A stretch of 64,000 nucleotides of DNA, taken from a virus. Its lineage: Duplodnaviria; Caudoviricetes. Each line of letters opens with the position of its first letter. The stretch's first letter is position 1. Below are positions 2,880 to 58,300 of the stretch, piece by piece. Under the pieces are notes generated by a model. The model worked only from the letters and a program-made list of their open reading frames with translations, was not told the origin of the DNA and made no database searches. The stretch spans positions 1 to 64,000 of the IMG/VR virus record IMGVR_UViG_3300048796_000029, one strand, 5' to 3'. The position numbers and the translations under genes were made by a program.

Positions 2880-3444
2880 GTGTTATATCGGGCAACACAG
2901 TCACGATAATCTTCAAAAATACTTCGTTTACAACGCCAGCAGGGCTTTGAGCGGTGCTACCGGAAAGCGCAGGCTTTGGTCTGCTATCCGTAAGTACGGC
3001 CCCAAAAACTTTACCATCCGTTGCATCCACAAATGCGCGGACAAAGCTGAGATGGATCGTGCGGAAAAAGCCTACATCAAACTTTTCGGAACCCGCGACC
3101 CTGAGTTGGGGTACAACTTGACAGATGGCGGTGAAGGCGCTAACGGTCTTCGTCATTCAGAGACTTTCAAAGCAGCCCTGCGTAAGCCCCGTACTGAAGA
3201 GTTGAAAGCAAAGGTTAGTGCAGGGCTGAAGAGGTGTTTTAGTACGCACGAAAACAAAGCGCACCTTAGTCGAGTTTTTGTTACTAAGTCGCATTGCCCT
3301 AAAGATCACGAGTATGACACATCCAATACCTATCTACGGAATGGTGTAAAGTTTTGCAGAGCTTGTGACGCCGCTAGGAAGAAGGCAGCGCGAGATAGGA
3401 AACGGCTGGAGGGCCGTAGTCATGAAACGCCTAACGTCACCTAA
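2842..3444 (+). CDS. GIY-YIG homing endonuclease
   Basis: VYLIQNMINGKCYIGQ N-terminus, GYNLTDGGEG, NUMOD-like tail and C-terminal Cys/His domain. Confidence 0.85.
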   Translation: MQVYLIQNMINGKCYIGQHSHDNLQKYFVYNASRALSGATGKRRLWSAIRKYGPKNFTIRCIHKCADKAEMDRAEKAYIKLFGTRDPELGYNLTDGGEGANGLRHSETFKAALRKPRTEELKAKVSAGLKRCFSTHENKAHLSRVFVTKSHCPKDHEYDTSNTYLRNGVKFCRACDAARKKAARDRKRLEGRSHETPNVT

Positions 3445-3903: not shown

Positions 3904-3978
3904 TGGCCTGTAGCTCAATGGCAGAGCCTTCCGCTGTTACCGGAATGGTTGTAGGTTCGAGTCCTACTGGGTCAGCCA
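3904..3978 (+). tRNA. tRNA-Asn(GTT)
   Basis: Cloverleaf with anticodon arm TTCCG-CTGTTAC-CGGAA, T-loop GTTCGAG, encoded CCA end. Confidence 0.92.
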
Positions 3979-4065: not shown

Positions 4066-4140
4066 GGGCGATTAGTTCAGCGGGAGAACACCAGCTTTGC
4101 AAGCTGGATGTCCACGGTTCGACCCCGTGATTGTCCACCA
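4066..4140 (+). tRNA. tRNA-Ala(TGC)
   Basis: Cloverleaf with CCAGC-TTTGCAA-GCTGG anticodon arm, G3.U70 Ala identity pair, encoded CCA end. Confidence 0.93.
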
Positions 4141-7952: not shown

Positions 7953-8609
7953 ATGCAGGTTTACGCCATAAACAATATAGCCAACGGTAAGATATATGTT
8001 GGGCAGACTATTCGTGATTTGGATGCCTACTTGCGCAGCGATGTTACTAGAGCCTTGAAGAGGACAAAAGATCGCAAGCCCTATTTATACGCTGCCATCC
8101 GTAAGTACGGCCCCAAAAACTTTACCATCCGTTGCATCCACAAATGCGCGGACAAAGCTGAGATGGATCGTGCGGAAAAAGCCTACATCAAACTTTTCGG
8201 AACGCAAGACCCAGAGCTAGGCTATAACCTAGCCGATGGCGGTGGTGGCTCTTTCGGGTATACACGGGTAATAACAAGCGAGCACCGAGAGAAGATAAGG
8301 CTGGCCGGGATCGGTAGAAAGCATTCAGAAGATACTAAGGCTAGGATGAGAGCAGCCGCTGTAGGTAAACCTAAATCTGAGGAGCATAAAGCTAAACTCA
8401 GGAAGCCTAAATCTGATGAAGCTAAAGCAGCTATGAAAGCCGCTTGGACCCTTGAGCGAAAGGCAAAGGGAACTTCATTTTCAAAAGGAAGGGTAATAAC
8501 GGAGGCTATACGAGAAAAAATACGTCAAGCAAATATAGCCTATCAAGTAAGAAAAAGACAGGAGGCTGAATGCAGATTGAATCCGATGGCATTGCCAGCG
8601 GCAGCCTAA
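7953..8609 (+). CDS. GIY-YIG homing endonuclease with NUMOD3-like repeats
   Basis: VYAINNIANGKIYVGQT; repeated HSEDTKARM/KSEEHKAKL/KSDEAKAAM. Confidence 0.88.
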   Translation: MQVYAINNIANGKIYVGQTIRDLDAYLRSDVTRALKRTKDRKPYLYAAIRKYGPKNFTIRCIHKCADKAEMDRAEKAYIKLFGTQDPELGYNLADGGGGSFGYTRVITSEHREKIRLAGIGRKHSEDTKARMRAAAVGKPKSEEHKAKLRKPKSDEAKAAMKAAWTLERKAKGTSFSKGRVITEAIREKIRQANIAYQVRKRQEAECRLNPMALPAAA

Positions 8610-8745
8610 AACCTGCTGATTACGGAAAAGGTGGTGATCTAACCAGCAGTAATGCCGAGTTGACGCTTGTTGTAGGAGCAGCAAAGCAAGCTGAAGAATG
8701 GATCGCTAACAAACAGTGGGCGCTCTTGTGGCGTGATGCAGACCT
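8570..8745 (+). CDS. Portal protein exon 1
   Basis: AGGAGG RBS; frame open to ...WRDAD-CT; joins exon 2 to give DLLYQSPRPM. Confidence 0.8.
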
Positions 8746-8971
8746 CAACATGGGGGTCACTTGCTAGTGATAGCAAGCTGAGAACTTTCTCTGATTGACT
8801 TGGAAGCTGAAATGGCTAACAGGGGGCAAGCTGATAACTTCAGCAGCCTGAACGACTAAGTGAGAGAGCATCTGGAAACAGATGATGCGATAGTCTGACC
8901 TGCATGGAATAACAACATGCAGAGGTAAGCAGAAATGACTTGCCTCGGCGTAAATCGCCGATAACAAAGTG
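8746..8971 (+). mobile_element. Group I intron 1 of portal (226 nt, no ORF)
   Basis: 5' exon ends in U paired to IGS GGGUC; P7 GACTA/TAGTC; GCAGCCTGAACGACTAAG core motif; P9 stems; terminal G; removal restores the frame. Confidence 0.88.
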
Positions 8972-9029
8972 CCTGTATCAGTCACCGCGTCCAATGACAG
9001 TGTACGAGAACACGTATGTACTGGAACCT
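8972..9029 (+). CDS. Portal protein exon 2 (58 nt)
   Basis: C+LYQSPRPMTVYENTYVLEP links exons 1 and 3 in frame. Confidence 0.8.
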
Positions 9030-9264
9030 AAACTACTCATTACAAATGAGTTATTGGGTCACTCTGTAGTGATGCAGATGTGAGAATTTTCTCTGATTGA
9101 CTTGGAAGCTGAAATGGCTAACAGGGGGCAAGCGAAAGCAGCCTGAACGACTAAGTGAGAAAACATCTGGAAACAGATGATGCGATAGTCTGACCTGCAT
9201 GGAATAACAACATGCAGAGGTAAGCAGAAATGACTTGCCTCGGCGAAAGCCGATAACAACGGTG
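9030..9264 (+). mobile_element. Group I intron 2 of portal (235 nt, no ORF)
   Basis: Core nearly identical to intron 1; IGS UAUU-GGGU pairs both exons; terminal G; restores LEP|NVQRF. Confidence 0.88.
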
Positions 9265-11136
9265 AATGTCCAGAGATTTACGGTCGCTAAAGTTTGTAAC
9301 GCGGTAGTTCCTCAACTGTATAAAGGGCTTTTCTATGCCGACCCTCCTATGCTGCTGCGCCCGCGCCCCGGAACCACCCAAGATGTTGTGGACGGCAAAT
9401 CCGCACTGTTCTCTTACCTACTCGACGAATGCCGCTTCAAGACGGAGACGAAGTGGGGACTCGAACAGATGGCTTGCCTCGGCACTGGCATCTGGAAATG
9501 GGGCATCGTCTACAAGAAAGTTGTGACGACCAAGCGCCAAGCCACGGTTACCAACGTGACGACCGGGCCGGACGGCGCACCAACGAATACCGTACTGCCT
9601 ACAGACGACCTACCGAAGATCACGACAACAGAGCGCGTTGTACCCCGCCCGTTCTTTGAGTCGCGGCCACTGAGCCACGTCCTCGTCGATCCTAAGTGCC
9701 CGGTTGGAGACATCCGACAGGCCGACTTCGTAGCAGACGTTCGCTACCTGAATTTTTACGAACTGGACACGATCCGCGAAGCTCTCTCAGAGCTACCGGA
9801 CGATCACCCAGACAAGAAGGGCTGGAATCTTCCGAAGTCTTCGGAGGAGTTGAAGCAGTGGTGGATGCCACCTACTGACAGCGGCCCGCAGTTGCTTTCG
9901 AGTGAAGGTGCAACCTACATCGACGGTGCTGTGTATCATGCGCAGAAAGTTAGCATCGAGGTAACCCCGGACGTACTCTTCGCAAAGAAAGAGGTTCTGG
10001 AATACTGGGATCGCAAGCGCAAGATCATGGTCATCGACCGTGCCAAGGTAATCTTCTCTGGCGACAATCCATTCGGCGTCATCCCGTTCCTTTCAGCGAA
10101 CTGGTGGAATAGACCGAAGGCGTTCTACGGCATGGGACTCGGCCTCATCGTCGGACAGAACCAACGTGTCGATCAGGGAACGATCAACGCCATCCTCAAG
10201 ATTTTGTCTTTCGGCGTCAACCCGATCTACCTGCGCAAGAGGGACACCAATAACCCCACGCAGATGATTCGGACTGGCCTCGGAAAGATTCTCAGCGTTG
10301 ACGGAGAAGTCGAAAAGGCTTACAAGCTCATGGACACCCCCAAGGTGCCCGGCGATATCTGGTCGGCGTTGAAAGAGTCCGAGACAGCAACCGAAAGCGC
10401 GTCAGGCGCAGACCAAGCTCTTGTGCAAGGTTCAAGCGCAGGGCCGCGTAGCTCTATGGGGCGCACGGCTGGCGGAGCAAGTCTGCTGGCAGGAGCGAGC
10501 GCTACCCGACTCGATGGCCCGCTCGACAACTTCATCGAACAGGTGTTCAAGCCGTTCTTGTACATCCTCGACGATCTAATCATGCGGTACCTGTCCGACG
10601 CTGAGATCAGTGCAATCCTCGGCGACGAGATGAGCAAGGATTACGAACTCGACCTAGACGCCTTCCACAAGGCCCGTATCGAGTACGAAGTCTTGGCTGG
10701 ATCAAGCCTCGCCGCGAAGCGGACGATGGCGCAGTCGTTGACCCTCATCACCCAGATTTTCGAGAACCCCGCCATTCAGCAGAACCTCGCTGAGATCAAC
10801 GGCGAGTACATCGACTTCAAGCCCATCGTTTCGATGTGGATGGAAGCCTCTGAGTGGAAGAACAAAAACGACATCATCAAGCCACTCACCCCTGAGATGA
10901 AGGCCAAGCAGCAGGCTCAGTCGCAGCAGGCGCAAGCGCAATCGAAGGCAGCAGTAACTCAGCAATCCAACCAGCAGAAGTTTCAGCAGAAGTCCCAGCT
11001 TGAAGATCAGGCAACTGATAACCGTATCCGGCGCGACATCGTACGCGAGGCGTTCCGAGACAACGGTATGAGCGAGGCAACTGAGGGCACTCCCGCAAGC
11101 GGTGGACTTGAAGGAATGCAGCCTAGCGTCCAGTAA
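9265..11136 (+). CDS. Portal protein exon 3 (spliced product predicted at 701 aa)
   Basis: Size and position after terL; FYGMG segment and Gln-rich C-terminal tail resemble P22-like portals. Confidence 0.8.
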   Translation, partial: NVQRFTVAKVCNAVVPQLYKGLFYADPPMLLRPRPGTTQDVVDGKSALFSYLLDECRFKTETKWGLEQMACLGTGIWKWGIVYKKVVTTKRQATVTNVTTGPDGAPTNTVLPTDDLPKITTTERVVPRPFFESRPLSHVLVDPKCPVGDIRQADFVADVRYLNFYELDTIREALSELPDDHPDKKGWNLPKSSEELKQWWMPPTDSGPQLLSSEGATYIDGAVYHAQKVSIEVTPDVLFAKKEVLEYWDRKRKIMVIDRAKVIFSGDNPFGVIPFLSANWWNRPKAFYGMGLGLIVGQNQRVDQGTINAILKILSFGVNPIYLRKRDTNNPTQMIRTGLGKILSVDGEVEKAYKLMDTPKVPGDIWSALKESETATESASGADQALVQGSSAGPRSSMGRTAGGASLLAGASATRLDGPLDNFIEQVFKPFLYILDDLIMRYLSDAEISAILGDEMSKDYELDLDAFHKARIEYEVLAGSSLAAKRTMAQSLTLITQIFENPAIQQNLAEINGEYIDFKPIVSMWMEASEWKNKNDIIKPLTPEMKAKQQAQSQQAQAQSKAAVTQQSNQQKFQQKSQLEDQATDNRIRRDIVREAFRDNGMSEATEGTPASGGLEGMQPSVQ

Positions 11137-13158: not shown

Positions 13159-13224
13159 ATGGCATACACTCCTGCTGGAAACGTCCAGTCAAACCTCCCT
13201 CAGTCCACCGTCAAGTTCTACGAT
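13159..13224 (+). CDS. Major capsid protein exon 1 (22 codons)
   Basis: AAGGA RBS; MAYTPAGNVQSNLPQSTVKFYD joins KKFRENL. Confidence 0.82.
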
Positions 13225-13450
13225 AAACGATAACCTTGTCGTAGTAAAACCTTCTCTGATTGACTTGGAAGCTGAAATGGCTAACAGGGCGCAAGCAATG
13301 CTTGACAAAAGCAACGCAGCGTGAGAGACTAAGTGAGAGGGCGTGAATTGATAACAATTCATGATGCGATAGTCCGAACATACGGGAATAACAACCGTAT
13401 GAGATCAGCAGAAATGACCTGATCCGTGCTCTGAAGCACGTAACACATTG
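13225..13450 (+). mobile_element. Group I intron A of capsid gene (226 nt, no ORF)
   Basis: P1 CTACGAT/GTCGTAG with U.G; shared core block; P7 GACTA/TAGTC; ends TAACACATTG. Confidence 0.88.
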
Positions 13451-14284
13451 AAGAAGTTTCGAGAGAACCTCAAGGCTCAAACACCTTTCATCGCCTGTTC
13501 CGAACGTCTCGATCTGCCCACCAAGAGTGGTAATCAGTACGAGATGTTCATGTACGTTCCGCTGGCTGCAAATCAGGCGCAGACCACGGAAGGTTCAGTG
13601 GGCAACAGTATCACCGTAAACGTTCTCCAGACCACCGCAACTATCGGAGAATACGCAGATTACGCCAACTTCTCCTCGCTGTCTCTGGCAACCGCCATCG
13701 ACAACACTGTCGAGAATGTGGCCCGCGAAATGTCCTACCGTCTGGGCGAGAGCCTGAGCGGTCTGGTTCGCGCAACTGCGGACGGTGCAAACGCGGTTGA
13801 CCCCAGCGTTCTCATCGCTCTCCCGGCAGCTTCGACTTCCAGCTTCACGACTCTCAGCCTGACCGAGATTCGTAACGCTGTCCAGTCCCTCGCTGGTCGT
13901 TCTGTGCGTCCGTACGACGAAGCATCCAAGGCATTCTGCGGTGTAATCCACCCGTTTGCTCTGGGCGACGTTCTTGCGGATACCGCGAACAACGCACCAA
14001 TCGACATCCTCAAGCACACTCCGGTGGGCCTTGCCAAGATGGAAGACCTCCTGAGCACCGACTTGACCGAGATGATCGAACTGCCTAGCTCTGGAGTTCA
14101 CTTCTTCCAGACGAATCAGGTCACCACGACCACGAACTACAAGGGCGTGGCTGGTCTGACGGCACTCCGTACCTACATCTTCGGGCGTGATGGCATCTAC
14201 AGCATCAAGCTCGGCGCTCAGGGCGACACGGAGTTCGGTGACGGCGAGTGGCAGAACATCAACTGCAACATCGTTCAGAACGCT
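13451..14284 (+). CDS. Major capsid protein exon 2 (278 codons)
   Basis: Follows the scaffold; EYADYANFSSL and HP motifs resemble P22/N4-gp56-type coat proteins. Confidence 0.82.
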
Positions 14285-14335
14285 ATACAGTAGGTTTGGC
14301 GTTCTTTTGAAGTTGTGTGGTAACCGTCCTAAATG
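14285..14335 (+). mobile_element. 51-nt core-less group I-like mini-intron B in capsid gene
   Basis: In-frame TAG (14291-14293); IGS 14290-14305 pairs 8 bp with each flanking exon; U.G at the 5' site; TAAC motif; terminal G; removal joins QNA|EPTVAD. Confidence 0.75.
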
Positions 14336-14416
14336 GAACCTACGGTTGCCGATCCCGAGGGGCTGATCCCCGGTTGGACTTCTTACAGAGTCCACTTCAC
14401 AACTTCGCTCGGCCCT
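14336..14416 (+). CDS. Major capsid protein exon 3 (27 codons)
   Basis: EPTVADPEGLIPGWTSYRVHFTTSLGP, with codon style like exon 2. Confidence 0.75.
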
Positions 14417-14643
14417 AAATGCTAAGTATTGGGGCGAGTAATAAACCTTCTCTGATTGACTTGGAAGCTGAAATGGCTAACAGGGGGCAAGCGCGGATGA
14501 AAATCCAAGCAGCCTGAGAGACTAAGTGAGAGGGAACCTGATAAGCACAGGTTATGCGATAGTCCGATCTTGCAGGAATAAAAACTGCAAGAGGTAGGCA
14601 GAAATGTCCTACCTCAGTGACGTAAGTTACTGATAACAATTTG
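14417..14643 (+). mobile_element. Group I intron C of capsid gene (227 nt, no ORF)
   Basis: P1 CTCGGCCCT/GGGGCGAG; P10 GTATT/GATAC; shared core; terminal G. Confidence 0.88.
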
Positions 14644-14694
14644 GATACGACCATCAGAATCCGCGAAATCGACGCCGCAAGCGCGATCAGCTAA
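14644..14694 (+). CDS. Major capsid protein exon 4 (spliced product predicted at 343 aa)
   Basis: DTTIRIREIDAASAIS-stop completes the frame. Confidence 0.75.
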   Translation, partial: DTTIRIREIDAASAIS

Positions 14695-14745: not shown

Positions 14746-15267
14746 ATGAGAAAACTAGACCTAGCAGGAAAACAATACGGAAGGCTGACACTTGTAAAAG
14801 TTGTCGGTGTGAATAAGGCAAAACAGAGAGTGTGGGAATGCGCTTGCGAGTGCGGTAAAACGCATATCGCGGCGCAAGGCCACCTCACAAAAGGTAAGGT
14901 CACCAGTTGTGGTTGCTTCCGAAAGGAACGCGCAACCACACATGGGATGACTCGCACCCCGGAATGGTTTGCTTACCAACACGCGAAGTCTCGGTGCCAA
15001 CCGGGACATGAATGTCATGAGCATTACTTTGATCGAGGTATAACTTTTGGGTTTACCTCCTTCATGGAGTTCTTTTCCGAGATAGGCTTACGCCCATCGA
15101 AGAAGCACTCCGTAGACCGTATCGACAACGATAGGGGATACGAACGGGGTAATGTTCGCTGGGCTACAAAATCCCAGCAAGAGCGTAACCGTAGATGTGA
15201 CAACTGCTGTGAACTAAAAAGCAGGATAGCAGAGCTTGAGAAGCGCATTCTCGAACTGACTAAGTAG
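14746..15267 (+). CDS. HNH homing endonuclease
   Basis: DLAGKQYGRLT...WECACECG; HSVDRIDNDRGYERGNVRWAT. Confidence 0.88.
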   Translation: MRKLDLAGKQYGRLTLVKVVGVNKAKQRVWECACECGKTHIAAQGHLTKGKVTSCGCFRKERATTHGMTRTPEWFAYQHAKSRCQPGHECHEHYFDRGITFGFTSFMEFFSEIGLRPSKKHSVDRIDNDRGYERGNVRWATKSQQERNRRCDNCCELKSRIAELEKRILELTK

Positions 15268-55321: not shown

Positions 55322-58300
55322 TAGACTGTTATCTCTCCGCCGTCCTCCGCCGATACTGCGCTTTGAGGCGCTACGGGGGTCACAGCAGCCTCGGGCGCTT
55401 TGCCGGGGGCGATGGGTGGTTGAGCCAGCGCCGGGGCCGTGGCAGCCTTCAGAGCGGCAATCTTAGACCCTTGGTCTTCGACCTTGTGGGAGTCCTTGAT
55501 CTTACTCTTGATGGTTTCGTTCCGTTCAAGCACCGTGCTCCGGGCACCGTCATACTCCAGCGTCGTCGTGCCGCCCTGCGAATACCGGGTCAGCCCAGCC
55601 GTGACAACCATCCCAGTCTCGAAAGCGCCGTCGCTCTCGATGTGCTGCAACTGGTCAAACTGTTCCTGCGTAAGTTCCGCCTTGCGGTTCCGGTGGAGGG
55701 TGACCATGCAGTCGCAATCCTTGGCGATCTGCGAGGAGCCGTCCACGTTGTCAGTGGTGACCATCTTGCCAACCATGATGCGGTGAGGTTGAAGGATGCG
55801 GATCATCTGGATGTTGTAATCCTTGGCGATCTGCGATGTCACCTTACTGATCTGCGACAGGTGCTCAGTTCGATTCGTACCCTTGGCCGATGACGTGGTG
55901 TCAGCAAGCCGTTGGATGTTGTCGATCATGATCCACTTGACGCCGTACCGCCTGATGCAGTCCTTCATCAGGTCGTAAATCTCTTCCTTGGTGCTGTACT
56001 TCGGATAGCAGAAGTAGAGCGTCCCCTTTCGTTCCCCGGCCATTGCCTGCACCTTGGGGATGGCGTCCATGAACTGATCCTTCAGGAACGTCGCTTCCTC
56101 TGACGACTTGGGGATGTTGTCTTCGATCCCGGTGACGTGGCAAATCCACTTCCGGGCCATACGTGCCCGCGTCATTTCGAGGCAGATGATGACACCATCC
56201 TCGCCGTACGCGGAGACCATGTGCTCCATGATGTTCAGGCCGAAGGTCGTGTTGTGGGTAACGATGAAGTCGTCTGTAATGTACAGCTTTGACGGATGGC
56301 TCACCGAGATGCATACTGCCTCATGCTCACCTACATATTCAATTTTCTCGAAAGTCAATCTAGGATCGTTTGTGCCATCTTTCTGGTTTACCAACTTACG
56401 CTTCCGTTCCAATGAAAACACATCCCTTCGCACCGCAGCCGGAAAACGCGCCACAATTATATAAGCGTCTTGACCTGTGCGAAGTTCTCCTTTGTATCGA
56501 AAGGATTTATTCTGTGGTTTACCTACTTTAGCAAGTCCTCCAAGAGACCGCACAAGGTATACAAAGTCTTCGGCAAGTTGCTTGCTTATGGTGCAGTAAG
56601 ACGGCGTTCCATTCTTATTGCCAGCGGTGCCATCCGTGTCCATAAGACCGCGGAGAAGCTCCCAACGTGATTCCTTATCTGCCTCTAGGTAAACCTTTGG
56701 AATGAACTTTGAGTTAGCCTTGTGGCCCCATAGACCTAACTTTCGTAGCGCCTCGGTAGTGGAATTGCCTAGCTCCCCACCACTCACCATAAATTTCTTC
56801 AATGTTTGTGATGAGGCTTTGACATGACCGTTCTTCCAAGTATCCCTGTGGATACCCGTAGCGTTGAGTACGTCTCCCCTCTCTGCTACTTTTTTTTCCA
56901 ACTTCCGCGCCATATACTCATCCACCGTGGTGAAAGAAGGACTCCCACCTACAAATGAACCGTCACCAATAAGAGCGCCTAGCGCCCAAGGATCAATTGG
57001 TAGGGTTGCAGAGCATCCGTAATCCCCCGATGCCAGAGGAATATGTACCTTGCTATGGTGCCTACCATTGCAGTGATCTTGTTGGATACCGTCTGTAGTC
57101 ATAACACGAGGGCCGTTTTCCCACGGATTCACCCCGTCAACCTGCCATAGGTGGGGTTTGCCCGCCAATACAGAACGACCATCGGCAAAGGAGCACCGCA
57201 TAATAGGTTGTACTCCCTGTGGATAAACACCTGTGACATAAGATTCTTTTCCATCTATGGAAGCCACTTGGTCTCCCACCACAAGGTCTCTAATCATTTT
57301 CTTGGAACCGTCTCTCATTATTATGTAAGTTGTTGATTCTAAAAACTTGCCTACCTTCTCTGGCGCTAGGATGTCGATGACATCGCCCTCGTCAATTCCC
57401 AACACCTTGTTGAGTGTCGGCCAAGCCGTCTGGTACTTCGGTTCGACACCGTTGCCCAGAAGGTCTTCGTAGAACTCTTGGACGGAATCGTGTGATGATG
57501 CTACACCGTCAACGTCGAAGAGTCGTGCATCCTCTTTGAGCTTCTGAAGCGCCTCAGCCGTGCCCCCACCAGACACAAACCACTCGTTGAGGTCTTTGCC
57601 TTTGCGGTGCTTTCCTTCGTCCGTGACCACATCGAAGTCCGGCAGCACGATCTTCCAGCACTTCTCAATGCCGATTCGCGCTGCCAAAGTCTGCGCTGCC
57701 TTCTGACCAACCTTGTCCTTGTCGTAACAGATGTATACCTTCTCCACGCCTATTCTGTCAAGCGTGTCGATCCAGTCGGCCTTCTTGAAGTTCGCGCCGG
57801 GGACGCCGCAAATGTCAGTGACACCGTGATCCAGCGCCGCGATGCAGTTCGCCTCGCCCTCGACAAAGAAGACCTCCTTCAAACCTTCGCGCAGTATCTC
57901 GCCGTTGTAGAGAGGAACGTCCCAGCCCTTCAGACTGGAGAATGCCTTCGGCACTTTACCCGGTTGACCAACAATCGGTAGGGTGCGGAAGTGCATGAAG
58001 ACGGCATTCTGGTTTACCAAGTAAGGATACACCAACGCCCGAACTTCACCGCATTCACGAAAGTATCTCTTGGTGAGACCTAACTTCTGCTTTTCAACGA
58101 TCTCACGAGAGAACCCTCTACCATTTATAAGGTAGTCCATCGCAGGATCATCGGCCAGCAGAGCTTCGTGCATGGCTTCAAAGTCAGGCATCTCCTCCAT
58201 CTTAGAGGATTCGCCCTTGCTTCCGCCGTAGCTAGACGTGCTCTCCATCGCCGGGTTCACCAGCTTCAGCTTGTCTTTCAGGCTGAATAGGTTCCCACCC

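Follow-up and report, generated by a model that had tools for sequence, protein, structure and literature searches.

The Capsid Gene and Its Exons

The window analyzed here is the first 64 kb (64,000 nucleotides, nt) of a 72,325-bp IMG/VR viral contig (IMGVR_UViG_3300048796_000029), which is 76% complete by estimate. It belongs to a Tunturi_3-like podovirus from a peat metagenome assembly, the closest cultured relative of the genome being Tunturiibacter phage Tunturi_3 (PP885686.1), a 97.6-kb podovirus from Finnish tundra soil that infects Acidobacteriota (PMC11924767). The gene of interest, at 13159-14694 on the plus strand, is identified by homology and by its position in the head module as that of the phage major capsid (head) protein, and three inserts break its reading frame. 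The first and the last (introns A and C) have the features of complete group I introns. The one between them, referred to below as the mini-intron, is only 51 nt long and is the main subject of this analysis.

The capsid gene lies downstream of the portal gene and a scaffold-like gene, and the order of portal gene, two small genes, and capsid gene is the same in the window and in Tunturi_3. The protein matches the major head protein family phrog_1357 (E 4e-18) and shows a weak sequence match in the PDB to a phage capsid (E 0.051), while a Pfam search with it gave no match. As regards a possible HK97-type fold, the AlphaFold model of an intronless capsid homolog is poor, with a predicted local distance difference test score (pLDDT) of 31.

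The borders of exons and inserts were set by DNA alignment and by spliced alignment to the intronless Tunturi_3 gp6, annotated as "major head protein", which is an uninterrupted open reading frame (ORF) of 343 amino acids (aa; P0001). Exon 1 (13159-13224) has 22 codons, ends in ...UACGAU and aligns to gp6 codons 1-22, and exon 2 (13451-14284) has 278 codons, ends in ...CAGAACGCU and encodes a protein segment 86.7% identical to gp6. Exon 3 (14336-14416) contributes 27 codons (EPTVADPEGLIPGWTSYRVHFTTSLGP) and exon 4 (14644-14694) a further 16, up to 14691, followed by the TAA stop at 14692-14694; all four exons are on the plus strand. The inserts thus occupy 13225-13450 (226 nt, after codon 22), 14285-14335 (51 nt, after codon 300), and 14417-14643 (227 nt, after codon 327). 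The alignment bears out the exon lengths that the initial annotation had proposed from the sequence alone, as well as its statement that all junctions are of phase 0, each of the three falling between codons.

When the exons are joined, a 343-aa protein results that is 88.6% identical to Tunturi_3 gp6. Exons 3 and 4 differ from Tunturi_3 by 14 and 8 synonymous codon changes, respectively, and the 22 synonymous changes are accompanied by no non-synonymous one (100% protein identity), which argues that these exons are translated. The peptides of exons 1, 3, and 4, whose presence in capsid homologs had been put forward as a check, all occur in uninterrupted homologs. It follows, as had been suspected, that the capsid protein depends on three splicing events, i.e., on the removal of three RNA segments. 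The ORF of 281 aa called by the program (13448-14293) is, as had also been pointed out, cut at both ends, since it starts in intron A and stops in the mini-intron. The predicted peptide across the exon 2/exon 3 junction reads ...NIVQNAEPTVADPEGL..., and the corresponding predicted tryptic peptide ...NIVQNAEPTVADPEGLIPGWTSYR. An independent contig, from Logan data on the probable source run, covers 13260-14472 with the 51-nt insert and shows 0 differences there, so the insert is not an assembly artefact.

The Mini-Intron

The mini-intron (14285-14335, plus strand) is an exact insertion relative to Tunturi_3, and its borders cannot slide because the bases on either side differ. It begins with a loop of five nucleotides (14285-14289), followed by the P10 guide GUAGGUUU (14290-14297), which pairs over 8 bp with GAACCUAC, the eight bases that open exon 3. 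Directly adjacent is the P1 guide GGCGUUCU (14298-14305), which forms 8 bp with the end of exon 2, AGAACGCU, placing a U.G pair exactly at the junction. The two guides make up one continuous 16-nt internal guide. A tail of 29 nt (14306-14334) and the terminal G14335 complete the element, all parts being on the plus strand. Read in the frame of the exons, it contains the stops TAG, TAA, and TAA.

The mini-intron has, accordingly, a P1 helix with U.G, a P10 helix, and a terminal G, as group I introns do, and it lacks a catalytic core of its own, i.e., the P3-P8 helices with the guanosine-binding site in P7. Neither nhmmer nor Rfam searches gave a match to a core in it, and the 29 nt between the guide and the terminal G leave no room for P3-P9. 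Judged from its layout, the mini-intron is a group I-type substrate element and not a self-splicing ribozyme. An exact search of IMG/VR for it returned no second copy. The possibility that the tail (GUCC or UAGUCU) mimics the P7 3' strand of a helper intron was also considered and was discarded, because the tails of other mini-introns do not have the motif.

The Complete Group I Introns

Introns A (13225-13450) and C (14417-14643), both on the plus strand, share 78% identity with one another and with two further copies, which lie in the portal gene (8571-11136). The latter two, at 8746-8971 and 9030-9264 (plus strand), are sibling full group I introns that form a tandem pair around a 58-nt micro-exon (8972-9029), and the called 633-aa portal ORF begins inside the second of them. 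None of these four full introns of the window carries an ORF. A U precedes each of them and a G closes it, and the pairing of its guide with the adjoining 5' exon puts U.G at the junction. In intron A, the guide GUCGUAG (13238-13244) pairs in this way with the exon end CUACGAU; the intron ends at G13450 and has an nhmmer score of 159 bits. In intron C, which ends at G14643, the guide is GGGGCGAG (14431-14438), and P1 consists of GCCCU/GGGGC extended by CUC/GAG across a one-base bulge, while P7 is GACUA/UAGUC with a bulged A. The site of intron C is occupied in at least 10 related genomes. Intron A is absent from Tunturi_3, and its site holds relatives of 566-616 nt in four related loci (L007, L008, L014, and L020; loci are denoted by L numbers throughout).

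An alignment of 23 family members from the window and from related IMG/VR contigs yields an RNAalifold consensus with P3, P4, P6, P8, P9, and P9.1, in which 30 of the 37 pairs show compensatory changes. The P7 strands (GACUA/UAGUC) do not vary, and they are bordered by the bulge and by a pair that covaries between G-C and A-U. All members end in ...UAACA(N)nUG or a close variant. On the basis of this consensus, introns A and C are compact group I introns of one family, with the fold expected of self-splicing ones.

The same compact family is also found in MW202674.1 (L002), the 36.6-kb Manatee Spring podovirus, an unrelated phage, where a member at 2984-3185 splits a P22-type coat gene. The annotation of that record lists two "P22 coat protein" coding sequences (CDS) and a small hypothetical ORF at the split gene.

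Mini-Introns in Related Phages

A sample of IMG/VR, searched by two protein-guided scans and one intron-core scan, provided 169 capsid genes. No mini-intron occurs in the 104 of them that are free of inserts. The related genomes contain 31 distinct mini-introns of 32-98 nt at 11 capsid sites (CDS nt 53, 60, 66, 93, 155/156, 161, 900, 906, 911, 921, and 940). One of these, in L133, lies at the end of the locus, shows no P10 pairing, and is probably an alignment artefact. The other 30 all follow a U, end in G, and have a contiguous guide with a P10 of 4-8 bp and a P1 of 6-13 bp. The guides fit their own exons with a mean of 13.5 bp, compared with a mean of 2.6 bp for the exons of other sites (maximum 4.4 in 20,000 permutations).

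The guides also change together with the exons. At site 900, the window has AGAACGCU/GGCGUUCU and L092 has AGAACGUU/GACGUUCU, the exon C having changed to U and the guide G to A. A C-G pair is likewise replaced by U-A at site 906, where CGAGCCU/GGGCUCG and UGAGCCU/GGGCUCA are the two versions in the comparison of L027 with L029, and in the P10 of site 921 (L103), where GAAGGCU/AGCCUUU becomes GAAGGUU/AACCUUU. Site 940 is found with three versions of P1 (CCGGUU/GACCGG, CCGGAU/GUCCGG, and CCUGGAU/GUCCAGG), and its P10 versions match as well.

The lengths of the mini-introns are often not a multiple of 3 (34, 35, 37, 40, 43, 46, 47, 53, and 61 nt), and their sites fall in codon phases 0, 1, and 2; a codon for Trp is split at one of them and a codon for Met at another. 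Excision of all inserts at U|...G nevertheless restores an ORF of 343-350 codons in every complete gene, even in the presence of five inserts. From the restored ORFs, the mixed lengths and phases, and the covarying guides it follows that the mini-introns must be removed precisely and that selection acts on the guides at the level of RNA. A search for an intronless, cDNA-like twin of a mini-bearing gene found none, the best match being ~97% identical.

These comparisons bear directly on the role of the splicing events. The initial annotation had taken the phase-0 junctions to mean that in-frame capsid isoforms (343, 316, and 302 aa) could be produced, or that splicing could gate capsid output. 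Its arithmetic is right, in that retention of the mini-intron gives a 302-aa protein ending in QNAIQ, directly followed by TAG, and in that joining 14284 to 14644 skips the 81-nt exon 3 in frame and gives 316 aa. Ligation to exon 4 is, moreover, a chemically conceivable by-product if the core of intron C acts on the 5' site of the mini-intron. The step from phase 0 to isoforms does not stand, however, and we consider such a function very improbable. Because the mini-introns of the relatives occur in all phases and often have lengths that are not a multiple of 3, the in-frame status is not under selection and the phase 0 of the window is coincidental. The two shorter forms would lose all or most of the C-terminal 43 residues. 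Conservation of the protein is highest in this part, with 33 invariant columns among 17 homologs, and no non-synonymous change relative to Tunturi_3 has accumulated there. The P10 guide of the mini-intron, furthermore, forms 8 bp with the start of exon 3 as compared to 2 bp with that of exon 4, which disfavours skipping. The reasoning from phase also fails since these are bacteriophage group I introns and not spliceosomal ones. The 302- and 316-aa forms are unlikely to be isoforms and would at most represent splicing failures or by-products.

The same data speak on whether the insert leaves the RNA at all. The T4 gene 60 gap, which is crossed by translational bypass, measures 50 nt. The 51-nt gap of the window is close to this value, with a stop two codons past the junction, and an AUG at 14333-14335 shares the frame of exon 3, such that bypass, a capsid split over two ORFs, or a dead gene in a defective phage might be envisaged. 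Bypass is at odds with the lack of a match between the take-off GCU and the landing AUG, with a similar lack at the other sites, and the related gaps range from 32 to 98 nt. A split capsid is opposed by the absence of a Shine-Dalgarno sequence before the AUG and by site 940, where the junction lies inside the Trp codon and no in-frame start is available; a dead gene is opposed by the recurrence in dozens of assemblies and by the purifying selection downstream. As none of these scenarios explains the covarying P1/P10 guides, we judge them to be extremely unlikely.

Removal from the RNA could, in principle, be carried out by proteins, with an endonuclease cutting and a phage RNA ligase sealing at the P1/P10 helix. 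Tunturi_3 (L088) encodes two RNA ligases and an RNA 2'-phosphotransferase (gp64, gp74, and gp90), and both ligases have homologs in the window genome (59059-60330 and 65098-66222). Phage RNA ligases of such type are usually tRNA-repair enzymes, and the ligases and the phosphotransferase found here probably serve that purpose. The invariant U.G pair, the terminal G, the U that precedes this G in all but 4 of the 31 mini-introns, and the group I layout of the guide are, on the other hand, signatures of recognition by a ribozyme, and no candidate endonuclease was identified. A protein-based route is, in our estimation, highly improbable.

The complete introns nearly all have a U before the terminal G as well. 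Their P10 helices are shorter than those of the mini-introns (site-level Mann-Whitney p = 0.025), and the longer P10 of the latter fits a greater reliance on the guide for the choice of the 3' splice site.

Some of the relatives are heavily interrupted, L090, L092, L094, and L144 having up to six interruptions in a capsid CDS of ~1 kb. L092 (IMGVR_UViG_3300050821_002142), for instance, has mini-introns at nt 161 and 900 and full introns at 268, 566, 870, and 981. These four loci hold two families of full introns, one of which is 600-900 nt long and carries ORFs.

Proposed Mechanism and Dependence on the Downstream Intron

In all 28 mini-introns that could be evaluated, i.e., for which the locus was long enough, a full group I intron is located 40-215 nt downstream. 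It is the sole full intron of the gene in L027, L055, L122, and L148, and many mini-introns have no intron at all upstream of them. Conversely, every full intron that occupies one of the C-terminal sites (957, 981, or 992; 18 distinct gene structures) is accompanied by an upstream mini-intron, although these mini-introns lie at five different positions.

On this basis, we propose that the mini-intron of the window is a non-autonomous group I-type intron that is excised by the ribozyme of the downstream intron C, a reading that we hold to be fairly probable. In this proposal, the mini-intron would have kept the substrate side of a group I intron and lost the whole catalytic core. Its guide would align the ends of both exons, a guanosine would attack the 5' site, and the exons would then be ligated at the terminal G, the chemistry being most likely provided by the core of intron C, which lies 81 nt downstream in the same transcript. 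The long P10 would select exon 3, and not exon 4, as the ligation partner. The 343-aa capsid protein would then be made only after the three RNA segments have been removed. We infer the excision, the group I chemistry, and the cis helper alike, the choice between cis and trans being drawn from the arrangement of the introns alone.

A helper acting in trans would not have to be intron C, as any free or nascent full intron RNA (intron A, the portal introns, or an excised intron) could serve. The genome contains four sibling cores, engineered ribozymes acting in trans are able to cut out segments that have no core, including in E. coli (PMC4094466), and no conserved tether to the downstream intron was found. 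Help in trans would, however, allow mini-introns to be far from full introns or downstream of them, which does not agree with the 28 of 28 cases above, nor with the four loci in which the downstream intron is the only full one. We regard a trans helper as rather unlikely.

The regular presence of a downstream intron would also be left unexplained if the mini-intron were an autonomous minimal ribozyme that folds together with exon RNA. Such activity has been claimed for fungal mini-introns in small-subunit ribosomal DNA (SSU rDNA), described with P1, P7, P10, and a helix formed by the intron's central part with the 3' exon, and with reported splicing in vitro when the exons are long (PMC3160393). 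In the window, the tail segment GGUAACCGU (14320-14328) can form a 9-bp helix with ACGGUUGCC in exon 3 (14342-14350). This helix is, however, not above shuffled controls, and neither is tail-exon pairing across the family; in addition, the tails of the 32-35-nt mini-introns, with 15-19 nt, are too small for a P7 or a guanosine-binding site. Autonomous splicing is therefore quite improbable.

Several observations have to be set against excision by intron C. A guide score of 16 was reached somewhere in 6 of 40 shuffled genomes, such that the genome-wide uniqueness of the guide is not significant by itself; the score is persuasive because it falls exactly on borders defined by homology and because of the family comparison. 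Intron C scores only 21 bits (E 0.014) with the Rfam model RF00028, which is under the gathering score of 50. The curated model is weak on such compact introns, and the second, longer intron family of the related capsid genes reaches 38.6 bits (E 6e-7). As to RNA, the region was compared with four of the 24 runs found, namely the probable source DNA run and three of RNA; the best DNA match among the public runs is a peat metagenome. The contigs from the RNA libraries are 90-95% identical relatives without the insert, for which spliced RNA and intronless DNA or RNA are indistinguishable, and an exact search of the Joint Genome Institute (JGI) metagenome contigs for the window-specific spliced exon 2/exon 3 junction gave no match. 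The genome is a metagenome assembly of 76% estimated completeness, which leaves viability unproven. No conserved tether was found between the mini-intron tail and the helper or the intervening exon (RNAduplex z from -3.3 to +1.8). L027 and L029 are the only outliers, with z = -1.1 for the window, and the sequence consequently does not prove help in cis rather than in trans. Finally, the proximity statistics are inflated by the clustering of intron sites in the conserved N- and C-terminal regions, part of the capsid-gene sample was chosen for having a full intron, and the lineages are not independent.

Regarding origin, sites 60, 66, 156, and 161 are used by both mini-introns and full introns, and at sites 156 and 161 the two also share the 5' guide region. 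Complete introns in tandem, ~60-110 nt apart, are found in the portal gene of the window and in L151, L154, and L156. This suggests that a mini-intron is the decayed upstream member of a tandem intron pair, and the portal pair may represent the state from which mini-introns arise. In the simplest account, the upstream member would have lost its core because its P1, lying 5' of the downstream core as in a normal intron, can be acted upon by the latter. More generally, the balance is slightly in favor of the mini-introns forming a natural non-autonomous class of group I introns, defined by a two-sided guide and a terminal G, which would use the ribozyme of the next intron, have arisen repeatedly from tandem pairs by loss of the upstream core, and ride along by borrowed catalysis at the RNA level and by co-conversion at the DNA level.

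In the spliced CDS, only 2 differences separate the window from L007 over nt 296-737, and the flanks near the intron sites are ~14-15% divergent. L007 and L008, the nearest relatives, have neither the mini-intron nor intron C. The mosaic divergence from these two loci resembles what recombination, or co-conversion tracts moving together with the introns, would leave behind. The two splice-site positions are both U in the window and A or C in L007.

Relation to Known Systems

Group I introns are well known from phage genes such as orf142 of Staphylococcus phage Twort and the td, nrdB, and sunY genes of T4. They are also carried by the capsid genes of crAss-like phages (PMC7886860). All of these resemble the present case in having self-splicing introns in conserved essential genes, sometimes several per gene and with homing endonuclease genes nearby, and introns A and C fit this picture. 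The difference is that each intron described in those cases has its own core, whereas none has been reported as a guide-only element of 32-98 nt that depends on a neighbor. Our literature search found no description of core-less or guide-only phage introns paired with a downstream full intron.

The removal of core-less segments has precedents in the laboratory. In E. coli, engineered "spliceozymes" clear mRNA of introns that have no core (PMC4094466), and trans-excision-splicing ribozymes cut out internal segments (PMC2532722). In these systems, derived from Tetrahymena, Pneumocystis, and Candida, a core removes a segment without a core and joins its flanks, making use of P1 and P10 pairings, a 5' U, and a terminal G, as proposed here. 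They are, however, laboratory constructs with the guide on the ribozyme, while in the present case the guide is located in the excised segment and the helper would be an intron of the same transcript. The group I core of Azoarcus is active when its internal guide sequence is exogenous (PMC2709566) and thus likewise acts on a P1 formed with a guide that is not its own, although in vitro and with a guide of 3 nt that was added as a fragment of its own.

Among natural systems, the closest precedent is provided by the degenerate group I introns of 56-81 nt in fungal nuclear SSU rDNA, such as those of Phialophora (PaSSU, 67 nt), Arthonia, and Porpidia (PMC3160393). These, too, are far below ribozyme size, have kept P1 and P10, and are thought to be deletion derivatives. 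Unlike the phage elements, they reside in eukaryotic rRNA genes, have one monophyletic origin, are described with a P7 of their own, and are claimed to be self-sufficient given their exon context. PaSSU, moreover, ends in U instead of G, and the fungal introns have no paired full intron downstream.

Streamlined elements that have kept their end signals, lost what served catalysis or coding, and rely on complete relatives are also known as the group III introns of Euglena plastids and as miniature inverted-repeat transposable elements (MITEs). The likeness to these is by analogy only, since the former are a class derived from group II introns and the latter are DNA transposons.

If excision by a neighboring ribozyme is correct, the mini-introns would be the natural counterpart of the spliceozymes and a group I parallel to the route proposed to lead from self-splicing group II introns to introns that depend on help in trans. 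One ribozyme would serve two introns, providing a living example of self-splicing introns that turn catalyst-dependent, and an essential, highly expressed virion gene would be seen to tolerate a borrowed catalyst. A practical consequence concerns annotation: where a gap of 30-100 nt brings stops into a phage structural gene or breaks its frame, it is likely to be recorded wrongly, as a truncated or split ORF, a frameshift, or a pseudogene. The capsid gene of the window is itself an example, the ORF caller having given 281 aa instead of 343. The guide rule, i.e., U|...guide...G with P1 and P10, offers a way to repair such annotations.

Genomic Surroundings

Two free-standing endonuclease genes flank the intron-bearing portal and capsid genes. 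One, of the GIY-YIG/NUMOD3 type (7953-8570; PF01541, E 1.4e-8), is located by the portal gene. The other, an HNH endonuclease gene (14746-15267, plus strand; phrog_374, E 2e-41), lies directly 3' of the capsid gene, at a place where Tunturi_3 has no HNH gene, and is a possible driver of intron mobility. A linkage of this gene to the C-terminal introns was considered and had to be rejected, given that an HNH gene is also found 3' of the intronless capsid genes of L025, L042, and L054 and that several intron-bearing capsid genes lack it.

Elsewhere in the window, genes for tRNA-Asn(GTT) and tRNA-Ala(TGC) are located at 3904-3978 and 4066-4140, respectively. The homolog of the Tunturi_3 gp60 primase/helicase is split by an insert of ~900 nt (~56434-57345, minus strand). 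Five ORFs similar to Tunturi_3 gp58, which is annotated as endonuclease VII, are scattered over the genome (1403-1675, 29504-29734, 40341-40610, 54462-54860, and 67458-67595) and may be further mobile nuclease genes.

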